64,000 nucleotides of DNA from Myxococcota bacterium (GTDB taxonomy: Bacteria; Myxococcota_A; UBA9160; UBA6930), in NCBI GenBank assembly GCA_965223705.1, contig OZ245015.1, positions 3,168,001 to 3,232,000 of the forward strand, in the 5' to 3' direction. Each line of letters starts with the position of its first letter. Positions within the stretch are counted from its first letter, which is position 1. This document shows positions 30,001-36,000 of this stretch, piece by piece. A program made the position numbers.

Positions 30001-33000
30001 CCGAAACGTGTTCGTGATCAAACGGAGCATGAACCCGGGCTTCGCAGGGATCGAGAACCCGCTCTTTTACAACGACAACACGATGATGATCTTCGGCGAC
30101 GCGAAGAGCGTGCTGCTCAACCTCGTCGCGGCGACGAAGGACGCTTAGCGCGGGACATCGAGGCGCCCCTTAGGCGCACTAGCCCATGAAGCTGTCGAGG
30201 ACTTCCTGGTAGCCGGCCCTGTGCTGCTCGAGGTAGATCCCGTCGAGGGGGGAAGGCTTGGGCTCTCCGGTGGCTTCCTTGAGCTTGGCTGGCGCCCGGT
30301 AGATCAACCCCGACGGCACGTGGCCCTCTTCGTAGAGCTCCATACACCGGTTCAGCGCCGCGACGCGATCGCTCGCGTCGTAAGAGGCGTCCTGATCGAC
30401 GTCGACGAGGGTCGAAGGCCACTCGTGGTAGTTGTCGTTGTAGGTCACGCAGGGCGAAATCACCTCGAGGTAGGCGAAGCCCTGGCCCGCGCGAGCGTGA
30501 TTGATGGCGGCATCGGTCAGATTCGCCAGCTGATCCGGCGCTCCGCTGTAGCCGCGGGCGAGGAACGTCGTCCCGGGAATCGTGAGCCCGATCTTGACCG
30601 GATCCATCATGCTCTGGTTCTGGTAACCGCCACCGAAGCTCGGGGACGGCTGCCCTTTCGTGAGCCCGTAGGTCTCGTTGTTCATCACGATGTACGTAAC
30701 GTTCGCGTTGGTCCGGAACGCGTGCATGAGATGACCGCCGCCGATCGCAAAACCGTCGCCGTCGCCGCCGGCGGCGACCACCGTCAACTCCGGGTTCGCG
30801 AGTTTCGCGCCGATCGCGGAAGGCACGACGCGACCGTGAAGCGCGTGATACCCGTAGCTCGGCAGATGATTCTGGACCGTGCCAGAACACCCGATCCCGG
30901 CGAGCACGAGGGCCTCGTGACGGGGGATCCCCAGACGATCGAACGAAGCGTCGATGGCGGCGTGAACCCCAAAGTGGCCGCAGCCCGCGCACCAAATCGG
31001 CTGCTTCATCGGGAACGTTTCGGTCATGATCGTGACTCCTCGCGGTGAATCTCTTTCGAGAGATCGATCGGGCGCAACGGCGTTCCGTCATAGCGCCGGA
31101 CGGAGTAGAGCTTTTCTTTCGGCGCTCCGGCATGCATCAAGATGCCCGTCAATTGTGCGCTCGCACTCTGGTTGATCACGTAGACGCGGTCTTTGCTCTC
31201 GATGAATTCAAGCGTCTCATCGAGGAGCGGCCAGAGCGTTCGAATGTTGTGAAGCTGCGCGGCGACGCCGACCTTTTCGAGCTCGTCGACCGTGTCGATG
31301 CTCGCGCCGTAACCCGAGCAGACGGCGATGATTCCGACCGAGGCGTTCGGATCGCCGTAGTGCCGCGCCTTCGGGAGATCGGGGGCCGCCGACTTGAGCT
31401 TTCGGGACCGCTTGTCGGACATCTGGATGCGGTTGCTCGGGTCCGTCGAGACCAGACCCCACTCGTTCCGCTCGTTGCCGGTGACCAGCGACTGTCCGCC
31501 GGGTGTGCCGGGTACGGTGTACGGCGACACACCGTCGTCCGTGATCTTGTAGCGCTGATACGATTCGAGCTTCGCGACATCCTCCGCAGAGAGCCGCTTT
31601 CCGACATCGATCTTGACGGCGTCGAGATCGAAGCGCGGAACGGTCGCGGTGTTCTGCGAAACGGCCTGGTCCGTAATGATGAACACGGGCATCTGATACT
31701 TTTGCGCGAGGTTGGTCGCTTCGACCGTGAGCCAAAAGCAATCCTCGGGATCGCCCAGCACCAGCACGATGCGCTCGAAGTCGCCGTTGCCACCGAAGCA
31801 GACCATGTTGAGATCGGCCTGCTCGGGCTTTGTCGGCATGCCCGTGCTCGGGCCCGATCGCTGTGTATCGACCACGACAAGCGGGATCTCGCCGCTCCCC
31901 GACTGGCTGATGCCTTCCTGCATCAACGCGATCCCCGGCCCCGACGAGCCGGTCATCGTCCGGACCCCCGTCAGCGCGGCGCCGAGCGCCATGTTCACCG
32001 AGGCGAGCTCGTCCTCGCCCTGCCAGGCGATCCCGCCGAACCGAGGCAGGTGCCGCTGAAGAAACTCGAGCACGTCGGTCGCGGGCGTGATCGGGTAGCC
32101 GGCCATGAATCGGCCTCCCGCTACCATGAAGCCCATCCCGATCGCCTCGTTTCCCGTCATCAGCAAGCGTTCGCCGATATCGCCGCGCTCGAGTTCGAAG
32201 AAGCCACCGTCACTGGTGAAGCCCATGGAATCTGCCAGCTCGTAGCCCAGGTCGAGCGCCTTCACGTTCTGCTCGACGATGGCATCGCCGAGGCGTTTGA
32301 AGCGGTGGCGGAATTCCGTGCGGACGTCATCGTCGGGAATGCTGAGAATCCGCGTGACCACACCCGTCGAAATCGAGTTCTTGTAGAGGATGCGTCCCAG
32401 TCGACGCACCGCGAGGCGACCGAACGGGGCGGTCACCACCTTGACGTCGTCGGAGATCACGCCTTGGGGCATCGGGCCGTCGGACTCGTCGTAGACGAGG
32501 ACCGAGTCCGAACCGAGCCTGCGAGCGACGGCGCGAAGCCCCTCTTCGTCCATGATGATTGCGAGTTGAAGATGGTCGCGAACCACCAATCGCTCGCGGA
32601 CACACGCACGAAGGCTCGCCGCCGCCTTACCGCCCTTGATGCGGGACAACACGTCGCGTTCCGTGTACACGCCCATTCCGCGATCGCGCAACAAGTCGCC
32701 CAGCATGTTCGTCACGGTCAACGAGCCGTCTCCGCCTTGGCCGGAGACCACCAGATTGACGTCGTCGATGCGAATCGGATCGCTCACGTCTACTTGTCCT
32801 TCCCGCCTGCGACGGCGCCCTGAAAGTTCTTCGGATCGAGATCGCCACTCGCAACGCGCTCTTGCAGGGTCGGCAACTGCGCGGGCAGCGGCTTGTTCGC
32901 CTTCTTCTTGCAAAGACGCCCGAGGAGCTTCTTCGCGCGCTCGGGGACTTCAATCGTCTCGATCGCGCCCGACGCGAGCAGCGACTGCGTGGCCTTGTGG

Positions 33001-36000
33001 CCCGCCTCCGTGCGCACGACGACGTAGGTCCAATTGTCGAGACCGATGCCGCCGACGCCGATGTCCGCCTGATCGCACGCATAGTCGGTGCAGTAGAGGC
33101 AAGCGGGCCGGGCGTACCTCTGATAGTCCGAGAGGGACAGGATTTCCTCGCGGCCACCTTTGAAGCGCACGATCACCTTGCCCTTGATGTTGATGTTCTC
33201 GATGTCCGTCAGCGGAACTCCGTAGTCTTCCGCGATCGAGGTGACGGACTCGAGCGTAAACGCCTCGGAGCAGAACAACCCGACGACAAGGGAGATGTTC
33301 TTCCGATACCACTTGTTCACTTCGAGACGAATCGAACTGTGTTGCTGCTGGCGTACCCCATTCACCTGGCAGGGCACCCCGACGACGGCGATGGGCTTGA
33401 TGTCGTTCTCCATGGCTTCTTTCAGCGCCATGGTGTTGGGTGAGTACGTGTAGCGGGAGCCGGCGCAATCCATCACTTGCTCGGCGTTGCGCGCCAGACG
33501 CTGGTAACCGAGTTGCGGATTGTCCTCGTACGTGTCGCCGAGTACCGCGCCCTCGATTTTTCCCTCGTTCAGCAAGTGGATCAGCAATTCGCTGGTGAAA
33601 CCACCGTCCTGAGTGGCCTTGACCATTCCGTCCTGCTTGCTTCGAGCCAAGAACTCGTAGCTGTAGGGACCGAAACCGTCGTCTTGTTGGGGTTTCCGCA
33701 AACCGATGACGTCGTTCGCGTCCGGATCCGGAGGCCGCAGCGAAGGACAGACGTCCGCGCACAGCACACACCGGACGCACGCCCCTTCGCGCGTGTCGAC
33801 CGGGCGCTCGTCGACGTAATCGAAAACGTCTGTCGGGCAAATCGTCACGCAGGCCGCGCACCCTACGCACTTTCCTGTCTCGACGATCTCCTCCATCAGG
33901 AAATCGACGGCGCGGAAGCCACCGCGGTTGAGCTCGGACCGCCAGGCGTAAGCCCAGTCGCCCGGGTCCTCTCCGCTATCTACAAGTGAGCGATACCGGG
34001 CCTTGATCTCGTCAGGTCGATCGGAATCCATTCGGTTTTCATTCCCTGCGTGAAAATCGGGCTCTGGCCGCCCCTAAGCCTCGGAGCGGGCGTTCGCCGC
34101 GTCTGGAAACGGACGGAGCCCGGGCGGCGTAGTGTAACGGAGATTGATGCCCTCGGGGCCACCCCGGGGAAGCGGCTCCGAAAGTACCCTCGGGTAAGCT
34201 GGGGGTCGGGAGGCTTTGTGAGCGAAGCAGCATACGACCTATTCGTGATCGGTGCGGGATCGGGCGGAGTCCGAGCGAGTCGAATGTGCGCGGGCCTCGG
34301 CGCACGCGTCGCCGTCGCCGAGGAGCGCTACCTCGGGGGCACCTGCGTCAACGTCGGTTGTATCCCCAAGAAGCTCCTCGTCTATGCCTCCCACTTCCGA
34401 GAAGAGCGCGAACAGGCCATCCGGGGCTACGGGTGGAGTGTCGGCGAGGCGACAGCGGACTGGGCCACGCTCATCGCGAACAAAGACCGCGAGATCGCGC
34501 GCCTCAACGGAATCTATGGGGATCTCCTGGACGCCGCCGGCGTGACGCGGATCGAGGGCACGGCGCGGGTGCGGGGCCCACACGAGGTCGAGGTCGGCGA
34601 TCGGGTGATCCGGGCCGAACACATCCTCATCGCGAGCGGCGGCTGGCCCTCGGTCCCGGACATCCCGGGCATCGAGCACGCCATCACTTCCAATGAAGCC
34701 TTCCACCTCGAAAAGCTCCCCCGGCGCTCCGTGGTGGTCGGGGGCGGTTACATCGCCGTCGAGTTCGCCGGCATCCTCCACGGACTTGGCTCGGAGGTCA
34801 CCCAGCTCTACCGGGGCCCGCTGTTCCTGCGCGGCTTCGACGACGAAGTTCGTTCTCACCTCGCCGACGAGCTCCGAAAGCAGCGGCTCGATCTGCGGTT
34901 TGAGACCAACGTCGAGGCGATCCTGAAGCGCGAAGACGGTCTGCGCCTCGAGTTGACGGACGGCACGCACTTGGACACCGACGTGGTGCTCTTCGCTACC
35001 GGCCGGCATCCGAAGACGGCCGGGCTCGGCCTCGCGGAGGTCGGCGTCGAGACCGACGCGAGCGGTGCGATCCAGGTCGACGCGTACTCTCGGACGAACG
35101 TGCCCTCGATCTGGGCGATCGGGGACGTCACCAACCGCCTCAACCTGACGCCCGTCGCCATCCACGAGGGCATGTGCCTCGCGAAGACGTTGTTCGGCGG
35201 TGAGCCCACCGCGCCGGATCATCGCGACGTCGCCACGGCCGTCTTCAGCCAGCCTCCGATCGGAACCGTGGGTCTGACGGAGCAAGAGGCGGCCGCGCGG
35301 TTCCCGCGGCTCGACGTGTACACCTCGACGTTCCGGGCCCTAAAAGACACGCTGACGGGGAGCGACGCGAAGAGTCTCATGAAGCTGTTGGTCGATCCGG
35401 AAAGCGACCGGGTGGTCGGGCTTCACGTGGTCGGACCCGACGCGGGGGAAATGGTCCAAGGCTTTGCCGTCGCCGTGAAGTGTGGCGCCACAAAGGCGCA
35501 GTTCGACGCGACGATCGGAATTCATCCCACCGCTGCGGAAGAGCTCGTCACCATGCGCGAGCCCAGCCGACGCATCGGCGGGTAGCCAGAGCTTGCTATC
35601 CTCGGGCGATGCGATTCCTTCGAACACTCGTCGCGTTGTTCGCCGCCGGGGCGGCCCAAGCCGCGGAAGTGCCCGAAGTCGGCACTAAAGCTCCCGCTTT
35701 CTCGCTGATGGGCTCGGACGGAAAGACCTATCGCCTGGCCGACTACGTGGGTCAGCGAGAAATCGTGCTCGCCTGGTTCCCGAAAGCGTTCACCCCTGGC
35801 TGAACCCGAGAGCTCACGGCGCTGCGTGACAGTGCCGACGACCTCGCCGCCTACGAAGCCGTCGTGTTCATGGTGAGCCTCGACTCGGCGGAAAAGAACG
35901 CCGAGTTCGCGAAATCGCTCGAAGCGCGTCACGTCCTGCTCTCGGATCCCGAGAAGAAGGCCGCGAAGGCCTATGGGGTGCTCGCACTGGGGGGCCTGTA

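Follow-up and report, generated by a model that had tools for sequence, protein, structure and literature searches.

A three-gene module in a myxococcotal genome with the predicted activity of a 2-oxoacid:F420 oxidoreductase

Three adjoining genes on the minus strand at 34031-30179 of the window (the whole 64,000-nucleotide stretch of DNA that was analysed), encoding an FrhB/FpoF-like protein followed by the alpha and then the beta subunit of a two-subunit 2-oxoacid:ferredoxin oxidoreductase (OFOR), are predicted to form a single enzyme system, a 2-oxoacid:F420 oxidoreductase. We give this reading, which the initial annotation had proposed, a probability of about 0.7; it is supported by the co-occurrence of the trio with CofD, by the cof genes in its neighbourhood and by the fact that the closest solved relatives reduce F420. 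No description of a bacterial route from 2-oxoacids to F420 by way of the enzyme's own iron-sulfur flavoprotein subunit was found in the literature searched. If the reading is correct, the trio would provide an F420-reducing route that starts from a keto acid of central metabolism and has not previously been described in bacteria.

Table 1. Features of the trio and its upstream flank (positions within the window)
Feature	Position	Strand	Basis or details
FrhB/FpoF-like F420-reductase subunit, 413 aa (P0001)	32790..34031	-	Pfam, PDB sequence matches, AF2 and Foldseek
N-terminal extension, residues 1-46	33894..34031	-	three short helices; pLDDT 82-88
Ferredoxin domain, residues 47-100	33732..33893	-	two CxxCxxCxxxCP motifs, C55/58/61/65 and C85/88/91/95
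F420-reductase (FrhB) core, residues 119-380	32892..33677	-	alignments
C-terminal tail, residues 381-413	32793..32891	-	KPLPAxxPTLQER...DPK; alignment columns 501-582
OFOR alpha, 587 aa from GTG 32787	31024..32787	-	POR (gamma-like) and POR_N
OFOR beta, 282 aa	30179..31027	-	TPP-binding, one [4Fe-4S]; Pfam TPP_enzyme_C and PFO_beta_C
Divergent intergenic region, 186 bp	34032..34217		between trio and glutathione-disulfide reductase gene
Glutathione-disulfide reductase gene	34218..35585	+	TIGR01424, 624.8 bits vs. cut-off 606

All three open reading frames were found on the same strand, as originally annotated. The longest reading frame for alpha begins with a TTG at 32913, within the FrhB-like gene, and alignment with alpha homologues begins only at residue 41-50 of that frame; the likely start is the GTG at 32787, 2 nt past the TAG of the FrhB-like gene and preceded by a GGGAAGGA stretch. 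The alpha stop overlaps the ATG of beta, so that, with the 2-nt gap and the start/stop overlap, the three genes are translationally coupled. The divergent intergenic region is presumed to hold the promoter, though no sigma-70-like site was found within it.

Pfam finds in the 413-aa protein the Fer4 dicluster, FrhB_FdhB_N (1.6e-33) and FrhB_FdhB_C (2.7e-16) domains previously assigned to it, and no NAD(P)-binding domain. Its best sequence matches in the PDB are 8RJA_E (4.4e-44, residues 42-380) and 8RIU_B (6.7e-32), the former outranking Fsr and FrhB as well as 8RIU_B, while the ferredoxin-dependent HCAR reaches just 2.5e-7. Foldseek, applied to an AF2 model (pLDDT 89.2, pTM 0.91), also places 8RIU_B (TM 0.84) and 8RJA_E (TM 0.82) above FrhB and Fsr; all twelve top-ranked chains listed are F420-dependent enzymes, with HCAR 13th. 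The identity to methanogen FrhB, earlier put at 32%, is 27-31% in the Foldseek alignments, and the protein falls well under the NCBI cut-offs for FrhB (149.9 vs. 331.5) and FpoF (115.9 vs. 475). Among the proteins scored there were 652 homologues at E<=1e-20, the best 120 of which are 58-100% identical.

All eight cysteines of the ferredoxin domain are invariant in 20 sequences; in 70 sequences seven are invariant and C85 is nearly so. The FrhB core carries Cys 221, 254, 311 and 314 for one [4Fe-4S] cluster, together with the motifs QDGG, SRYTYSP and VGVPCQ, which it shares with 8RJA_E and Fsr in the alignments; the literature searched describes the F420 binding site as a positively charged cleft, with no residue-level signature. 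The N-terminal extension, in which Y13, W26 and W30 are nearly invariant, is conserved in the OFOR-linked clade, partly conserved in an archaeal sister group and absent from more distant FpoF-like proteins, and alignments with distant homologues start only near residue 45; the extension may serve in docking. Conservation of the C-terminal tail is confined to the OFOR-linked clade, and pLDDT drops from 83 to 38 along it.

Against NCBIfam TIGR03710 ('2-oxoacid:acceptor oxidoreductase subunit alpha', cut-off 482.75) the alpha subunit reaches 543.5 bits. It has a YPITP motif that is invariant in 43 sequences and matches 6N2N_A best in the PDB (1.4e-82), with 5B48_A second. In beta, C13, C16, C47, C193 and the GGDGD motif are likewise invariant in 43 sequences and the best match is 6N2N_B (1.4e-46), though its score lies under the TIGR02177 cut-off (209.5 vs. 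261.9). The trio's OFOR is the only one in the source genome, and the FrhB-like gene is that genome's only member of the FrhB family. Of 60 further genomes from the order, 58 have a different alpha-beta OFOR, 31-37% identical to that of the trio; in genome G370 this ordinary enzyme adjoins sucD, while in G000 the same flanking genes lie 134 bp apart without it. The trio's OFOR is the sole one in G000, G001, G005 and G006, and it seems that the trio replaced the ordinary OFOR next to sucD in the source lineage.

The gene order is invariant. OFOR alpha lies directly 3' of the FrhB-like gene in 96 of 96 testable loci, and the complete trio is found in the same order in all 87 loci free of a contig-end cut. 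The 97 carrier loci all come from uncultured organisms (MAGs and one single-cell assembly) under at least eight phylum labels, including Myxococcota, Thermodesulfobacteriota/Dadabacteria, Chloroflexota, Bipolaricaulota, Pseudomonadota and Actinomycetota. Bacteria already capable of F420 synthesis appear to acquire the module by horizontal transfer.

The trio is also linked to F420 biosynthesis. CofD exceeds the NCBI curated cut-off in 81 of the 97 other trio-carrying genomes (42/50 and 39/47 in the two carrier sets), and a further 11 (3 and 8) have a match that is near the cut-off or truncated by a contig end, as against 8 of 150 non-carriers (5%) from the class of a gammaproteobacterial carrier and 42 of 150 (28%) from the source organism's own phylum; these counts are not independent, since the genomes are related and the MAGs are of unknown completeness. 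No homologue of the trio turned up in either sample of 150. Of the remaining five carriers, four gave no match to CofD and the fifth a fragment only; three of the five have Fno over its cut-off, and the other two (G015 and G050) are without it. In 22 of the 97 loci cofD, cofE, cofC or cofGH lies within 6 kb, beside or around the trio, and locus L071 reads trio-cofD-cofE-cofC-cofGH on one strand. The initial annotation had cautioned that several host phyla of the homologues are not known to make F420, which would speak against its reading; the test of this came out in favour of that reading, with CofD in most carriers. The wider FpoF-like branch is also linked to F420, with cofE, cofD or cofC in the flanks of 19 of 47 mostly bathyarchaeotal loci.

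In the source genome itself, 134 genes match Bac_luciferase above the Pfam cut-off (133 by the earlier count). Its F420 biosynthesis genes are borne out, with a CofD over the cut-off, CofD, CofC and CofE together at 3807688-3809980 of contig C1 and CofG/H at 455334-457615. It also has Fno over the cut-off (C1:683564-684208), which accounts for F420 reduction in this organism without the trio, and the earlier remark that no gap demands it holds for this genome. It does not extend to 19 CofD-positive genomes among 50 carriers, in which searches found neither Fno nor, at E<=1e-40, anything Fgd-like. Since the Fgd search scored only 33 candidates per genome, an Fgd may have been overlooked in 7 of the 21 genomes taken to lack both enzymes.

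In the proposed mechanism, alpha and beta would oxidatively decarboxylate a 2-oxoacid, possibly 2-oxoglutarate, in a reaction that depends on TPP and CoA. The single [4Fe-4S] cluster of beta would release the electrons one at a time, without involvement of free ferredoxin, to the two clusters of the ferredoxin domain, from which they would pass through the [4Fe-4S] cluster of the FrhB core to a bound flavin and finally, as hydride, to F420. With a potential of about -500 mV, the 2-oxoacid couple is below the -340 to -350 mV of F420, so the reaction should run towards F420H2, and the trio could hold the F420 pool strongly reduced. The value of -350 mV for F420 is given in PMC10229431. The presumed sink for the F420H2 would be the luciferase-like and other F420 enzymes of the genome.

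The same pathway might operate without a stable complex, alpha and beta reducing free ferredoxin and the FrhB-like protein acting as a co-expressed soluble ferredoxin:F420 oxidoreductase, as free FpoF of Methanosarcina is reportedly able to do. Free ferredoxin is the usual partner of two-subunit OFORs, the closest solved ones being of that type; no OFOR was found in the flanks of the archaeal sister clade's gene, nor does the gene adjoin one in the bathyarchaeotal FpoF-like relatives; and, to a small degree, the failure to find a fused form of the FrhB-like protein among longer proteins points the same way. We nevertheless consider this version unlikely, as the unvarying order in 87 of 87 uncut loci across phyla, together with the start/stop coupling, is tighter than partners of a diffusible carrier would predict, the OFOR-linked clade has conserved N- and C-terminal extensions of its own, and its nearest relatives of solved structure are subunits bound to their host enzymes.

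That the acceptor is something other than F420 (a quinone, rubredoxin, oxygen-defence proteins, NAD(P) via a partner, or a small molecule as in HCAR, an FrhB-family member that does not use F420) has a precedent in Thermococcus FrhAGB, reported as a rubredoxin reducer (PMC13333549), and would suit a protein that scores under the FrhB and FpoF equivalog cut-offs. It too seems improbable, given the near-constant presence of CofD in carriers, the cof clusters around the trio, the ranking of folds and the lack of an NAD(P)-binding domain by Pfam. Far less probable still is operation in reverse, as an F420H2-driven 2-oxoacid synthase carboxylating acyl-CoA for CO2 fixation. OFORs are in principle reversible, and the closest solved alpha-beta enzyme, 6N2N, is presumably a 2-oxoglutarate synthase of the reverse TCA cycle, but the 2-oxoacid couple lies about 150 mV below F420, so the uphill two-electron transfer would need extra coupling; domain searches found no bifurcating module in the trio proteins, and an oxidative 2-oxoglutarate dehydrogenase E1 is present in the source genome and in 20 dadabacterial-type loci.

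Returning to the predicted 2-oxoacid:F420 oxidoreductase, the 413-aa protein shares its Pfam domains, cluster ligands and fold with FpoF/FqoF (the input subunit of F420H2 dehydrogenase), FrhB of F420-reducing hydrogenase and the N-terminal half of Fsr, and has the N-terminal two-cluster ferredoxin domain of FpoF and Fsr. It scores under the curated cut-offs of all the NCBIfam models for these, its partners are OFOR subunits rather than Fpo, FrhAG or a sulfite reductase domain, and its predicted direction is F420 reduction. The two-subunit OFORs 6N2N/6N2O (which we take to be the 2-oxoglutarate enzyme of Magnetococcus marinus) and 5B46-5B48 of Sulfolobus tokodaii resemble the trio's enzyme in their alpha subunit, a gamma-like/alpha fusion, in a beta subunit with one [4Fe-4S] cluster and TPP, and in having no delta subunit; the trio differs in that an FrhB-like gene always lies upstream.

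The nearest parallels to the 413-aa protein are its best matches, from Ca. Ethanoperedens thermophilum: 8RIU_B, the zeta subunit of ACDS, an F420-reducing CO dehydrogenase, and 8RJA_E of formylmethanofuran dehydrogenase. According to PMC11493965, these subunits, whose role as F420-reducing adaptors is proven biochemically, likewise consist of a ferredoxin domain, an F420-reductase domain and a C-terminal extension, and they enable CODH and Fwd to reduce F420. The logic is the same, an adaptor by which an enzyme of the ferredoxin type comes to reduce F420. Their identity to the 413-aa protein in the fold alignment is 24-27%, they have no counterpart of its 46-residue N-terminal extension, and their host enzyme is an archaeal CODH or Fwd instead of the bacterial two-subunit OFOR predicted from the genes of the trio. 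A 2021 review (PMC8498797) lists as bacterial F420-reducing dehydrogenases Fno, which uses NADPH, and Fgd/Fsd, which use sugar phosphates. Like these, the trio is proposed to supply F420H2 to bacterial F420H2-dependent reductases; they are single-subunit hydride transferases of unrelated fold, whereas the trio would draw on a donor of much lower potential through iron-sulfur clusters and flavin.

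Three minus-strand open reading frames make up the trio, and they carry the domains that the initial annotation had assigned to them: an FrhB/FpoF-like subunit followed on the same strand by the alpha and beta subunits of a two-subunit 2-oxoacid:acceptor oxidoreductase (OFOR). Homologues of alpha begin to align only at residue 41-50 of its longest open reading frame, and its likely start, a GTG at 32787, stands behind GGGAAGGA, 2 bases downstream of the TAG that closes the FrhB-like gene; alpha is therefore taken as a protein of 587 amino acids, translationally coupled to the FrhB-like gene. 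The alpha stop codon is in turn overlapped by the beta ATG. The pntAB transhydrogenase genes converge with the operon, and a glutathione-disulfide reductase gene diverges from it across 186 bp. The promoter and terminator scan found no promoter-like site by the trio; its two terminator-like sites are on the opposite strand and their count is below the shuffle mean. No second FrhB-family gene and no second OFOR were found in the window's genome.

Coordinates of the trio and of other features discussed in the text (window positions unless a genome or locus is named)
Feature	Position	Strand	Remarks
FrhB/FpoF-like subunit	34031..32790	-	413 aa; ORF scan, Pfam
OFOR alpha	32787..31024	-	587 aa from GTG; TIGR03710
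OFOR beta, TPP-binding	31027..30179	-	282 aa; Pfam
pntAB	26926-30148	+	
Luciferase-like monooxygenase match	14934-15905	-	
Luciferase-like monooxygenase match	56806-57756	-	
Nitroreductase-family protein	23943-25058	-	372 aa; domain only at residues 174-345
ORF with glutaredoxin family match	36136-37275	-	380 aa; match in last 75 residues only
Ordinary-OFOR locus	G000:C1:1099559-1100921 (outside window); L159 2743-5720		OFOR absent in G000, the window's genome
Amidase, gammaproteobacterial carrier loci	L045 6354-7823; L062 11546-12988		Pfam Amidase, 2e-98
Second FrhB-like paralogue, gammaproteobacterial carrier	G027:C1:60765-61880		494-aa open frame; 35% identical

Of the 134 luciferase-like monooxygenase (LLM) matches in the genome, two fall elsewhere in the window, as does a nitroreductase-family protein with a weak likeness to the C-terminal part of FbiB (37 bits, far under the cut-off), whose N-terminal 170 residues returned no match. 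The gene within the glutaredoxin-matching frame may be much shorter than the frame itself, or may include an uncharacterised N-terminal region.

The FrhB-like subunit passes both Pfam models of its family easily (FrhB_FdhB_N, 116.2 bits against a gathering threshold of 23.3, 1.6e-33; FrhB_FdhB_C, 59.9 against 22, 2.7e-16), and on sequence it is classed as neither FrhB nor FpoF proper, because its scores lie far under the curated NCBIfam cut-offs (NF040616, 115.9 vs. 475; NF006808, 117.1 vs. 444; TIGR03289, 149.9 vs. 331.5). It opens with two ferredoxin-type CxxCxxCxxxCP motifs, continues with the FrhB/FdhB halves and ends in a conserved tail, the N- and C-terminal extensions being clade-specific. 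Among the [4Fe-4S] ligands of the FrhB core, C221, C254 and C314 do not vary across 70 sequences and C311 hardly varies, while all four are invariant in a 20-sequence alignment; the QDGG, SRYTYSP and VGVPCQ motifs, common to 8RJA_E and the F420-dependent sulfite reductase Fsr, are conserved together with all cluster cysteines. A derivation of the ferredoxin domain from a captured OFOR delta subunit was rejected, the domain matching delta models at the generic dicluster level only (26.5 vs. 125; 23.3 vs. 60). Proteins of 724-2065 aa matched at E<=1e-20 appeared to include no fused form, and one gammaproteobacterial carrier of the trio has a second FrhB-like paralogue.

In a sequence search of all solved structures, the subunit ranks closest to the Ethanoperedens formylmethanofuran dehydrogenase subunit 8RJA_E (4.4e-44 over residues 42-380), followed by Fsr (7NP8_A, 3.8e-35), the FrhB chains, beta subunits of F420-reducing hydrogenase (about 1e-34), the Ethanoperedens CO dehydrogenase subunit 8RIU_B (6.7e-32) and, at 2.5e-7, the ferredoxin-dependent chlorophyll enzyme HCAR. 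An AlphaFold2 model built from 70 sequences (pLDDT 89.2, pTM 0.91) gave a similar picture in Foldseek, with 8RIU_B and 8RJA_E at the top (target TM 0.84 and 0.82), then FrhB and Fsr, and HCAR 13th; against solved FrhB, Fsr and zeta subunit the E values ran from 2e-29 to 2e-21 and target TM from 0.82 to 0.86. PMC11493965 assigns 8RIU to the CO dehydrogenase and 8RJA to the formylmethanofuran dehydrogenase of Ca. Ethanoperedens thermophilum, both of them F420-reducing; in each, according to that paper, an extra subunit converts a normally ferredoxin-linked enzyme to an F420 reducer.

The trio's OFOR is intact by its conserved motifs. Alpha exceeds its curated cut-off (TIGR03710, 543.5 bits vs. 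482.75), beta falls under its own (TIGR02177, 209.5 vs. 261.9) with its Pfam domains passing, and across 43 sequences the alpha YPITP motif (Y231-P235), the four beta cluster cysteines and the beta GDG TPP motif are all invariant. Among solved enzymes it is closest to 6N2N and 5B46-5B48, which are of the alpha-beta type. A literature search on the Magnetococcus enzyme gave unrelated work only.

Of 60 other genomes in the window's order, 58 carry an ordinary alpha-beta OFOR, 31-37% identical to the trio alpha; in a complete relative (G370) it scores 652 bits with TIGR03710 and adjoins sucD, the gene for succinate-CoA ligase alpha. In the window's genome the genes on either side are retained (86%, 81% and 88% identical), separated by 134 bp where the relative has 3.1 kb of OFOR. 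Here and in the group's three other carriers of the trio (G001, G005 and G006) the trio's OFOR is the only one, and the lack of the ordinary OFOR suggests that the trio has replaced a TCA-linked 2-oxoglutarate:ferredoxin oxidoreductase in this lineage. In 20 of 81 loci, those of Dadabacteria/Thermodesulfobacteriota (L007-L031, L066, L070), sucA, encoding the E1 component of 2-oxoglutarate dehydrogenase (1085 bits), directly follows the trio. The displacement and the sucA linkage together hint faintly at 2-oxoglutarate as the substrate. Four Dehalococcoidia loci have a gene for a dihydrolipoyl acyltransferase upstream of the trio. The pntA gene is also a neighbour of the trio in L001, L005 and L006, the three carrier loci closest to the window's, and not in other phyla; the pntB and glutathione reductase orthologues of G370 are not adjacent.

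Two scans of one genome per species, one of them taking the best 80 of at least 381 relatives, yielded 97 distinct trio loci, with an FrhB-like gene that shares 53-86% identity with the window's. OFOR alpha is directly downstream on the same strand in all 96 loci with DNA there (the contig of L101 ends 168 nt past the FrhB-like gene), and the trio is complete in all 87 that are uncut inside the operon. The carriers, all uncultured, are labelled Myxococcota, Thermodesulfobacteriota/Dadabacteria, Chloroflexota (Dehalococcoidia), Bipolaricaulota, Alpha- and Gammaproteobacteria, Acidimicrobiia, Thermoleophilia and others. In a FastTree phylogeny of 144 rows the 97 trio-type rows form one clade (support 100), with four Nitrososphaerota/Caldarchaeum rows as sister and 43 mostly bathyarchaeotal rows outside; no OFOR was found within 5 kb in any of the 52 loci outside the clade. 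The neighbours of the archaeal sister genes are 6-phosphogluconate dehydrogenase, an aminotransferase, aldehyde:ferredoxin oxidoreductase and ORFs without assigned function. Within the trio clade the phylum labels are interleaved, with at least 4-5 changes for Pseudomonadota and the window grouping with Dehalococcoidia, which suggests that horizontal transfer has shaped it, FastTree and MAG labels both being fallible.

For the initial annotation, which proposed a 2-oxoacid:F420 oxidoreductase, hosts without F420 synthesis would have counted against the reading; the hosts nearly always do make F420. CofD exceeds the curated TIGR01819 cut-off in 42 of 50 carriers of the first set, with three more near it or truncated, and in 39 of 47 of the second, the other eight scoring 94-254 bits (near the cut-off or contig-cut); among first-set carriers labelled Gammaproteobacteria the count is 11 of 13, with one near. 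By comparison, CofD was found in 8 of 150 other genomes from the class of one gammaproteobacterial carrier and in 42 of 150 from the window's phylum, including 27 of 27 of its class, and neither control held the trio's FrhB-like gene (0/150 in each). The implication thus runs one way, from trio to F420 synthesis and not the reverse, as would be expected if the trio were an accessory F420-dependent module. Five carriers have no convincing CofD, with a fragment in G012 and nothing in G015, G019, G023 and G050; Fno is over cut-off in G012, G019 and G023.

The linkage also shows in gene position. In 22 of 97 loci, genes for F420 biosynthesis are found no more than 6 kb away from the trio, and representative neighbours exceed their NCBIfam cut-offs (CofD 292 bits, CofE 250, CofC 146, CofGH 1136). 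Locus L071 has the order trio-cofD-cofE-cofC-cofGH on one strand, L045 and L062 have trio-cofD-cofE, L040 has LLM-trio-cofD, and L078 has a divergent LLM-cofD-cofE-cofGH set. An amidase gene follows in L045 and L062; tblastn finds 11 matches to it in the genome of the window. Distant FpoF-like genes (33-38% identical, lacking both the N-terminal extension and an OFOR) have cofE, cofD or cofC within 5 kb in 19 of 47 loci (among L107-L158, mostly Bathyarchaeota), and may encode a stand-alone ferredoxin:F420 oxidoreductase.

The window's genome has Fno and thus no gap in F420 reduction, so the view that no gap demands the trio holds there; it fails for 19 CofD-positive carriers. Of 50 carriers, 28 gave no match to Fno and one gave weak matches only; 8 of these 29 have an Fgd-like match at E<=1e-40, of which only G035 exceeds the cut-off and G044 comes close. 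That leaves 21 with neither Fno nor Fgd, mostly Proteobacteria and Acidimicrobiia, 19 of them with CofD, all 21 being MAGs and Fgd scoring having covered only 33 of the luciferase-like candidates in 7 of them.

The conserved parts of the trio are thus linked to each other and to F420 biosynthesis. In the mechanism that we propose, alpha-beta would decarboxylate a 2-oxoacid with TPP, single electrons would leave the beta cluster for the pair of clusters in the FrhB-like ferredoxin domain and continue through the FrhB-core cluster to a flavin, and hydride would go from flavin to F420. Going by gene order and translational coupling, the three proteins may form a stable complex with a continuous cluster chain. 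Co-folding of alpha and beta with FrhB-like residues 1-115, run without controls, scored 0.00, under the mark, which speaks neither for nor against a complex. The same pathway could run through free ferredoxin with no complex; given the gene order kept in 87 of 87 uncut loci we think this unlikely. A slightly less likely alternative is an acceptor other than F420, the equivalog cut-offs being missed. The literature on F420 sites that we drew on names a positively charged cleft and no defining residues. Co-occurrence and synteny with cof genes argue indirectly that the FrhB-like subunit would bind FAD and reduce F420.

The 2-oxoacid donor potential is near -500 mV. Such a donor would drive electrons towards F420H2, and operation in reverse is very improbable. 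We put at about 0.5 the probability that the trio is a widespread, horizontally mobile bacterial 2-oxoacid:F420 oxidoreductase complex, the main or only F420H2 source in many marine and subsurface Proteobacteria, Acidimicrobiia and relatives lacking Fno and Fgd, whose donor would keep the F420 pool in a far more reduced state than NADPH can, powering LLM batteries, and which can assume the TCA role of an ordinary 2-oxoglutarate:ferredoxin oxidoreductase, as seemingly here. With a 2-oxoacid-driven F420 reductase, F420 would be tied directly to central carbon metabolism, F420 reduction in carriers without Fno or Fgd would be explained, and strongly driven F420H2 regeneration would become available for biocatalysis.

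In the literature covered (subscription journals lay outside it), no paper came up under the phrases pyruvate, oxoglutarate or oxoacid:F420 oxidoreductase, and phrase searches for ferredoxin:F420 oxidoreductase found archaeal or CO work only; searches combining F420, cofD, cofE, Proteobacteria and FrhB gave nothing on the trio, and those combining F420 with OFOR and FrhB, or with 2-oxoacid and LLM, gave archaeal work only among the matches listed. In the sections consulted of a 2021 review (PMC8498797), Fno, Fgd and Fsd are the only bacterial F420-reducing dehydrogenases listed, no F420 reducer is noted as studied outside Actinobacteria, and the reason Proteobacteria and Chloroflexi make F420 is described as not known.

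Compared with known systems, the trio differs from FpoF and FrhB proper in its gene neighbours, which are OFOR alpha and beta, pntAB and glutathione reductase, with no Fpo or FrhA/FrhG. It resembles two-subunit OFORs in having no delta gene, the sole two-cluster domain of the operon being the FrhB-like N-terminus, and it resembles the ACDS zeta and Fwd adaptors in joining a two-cluster ferredoxin domain, an F420-reductase domain and a C-terminal extension, as these are described in PMC11493965. The adaptor principle and the modules are already known, the combination and the domain of life being undescribed; on our reading the principle found in 2024 for archaeal CODH and Fwd, an F420-reductase set on a ferredoxin-type enzyme, would apply in bacteria too, and to a third class of enzyme.
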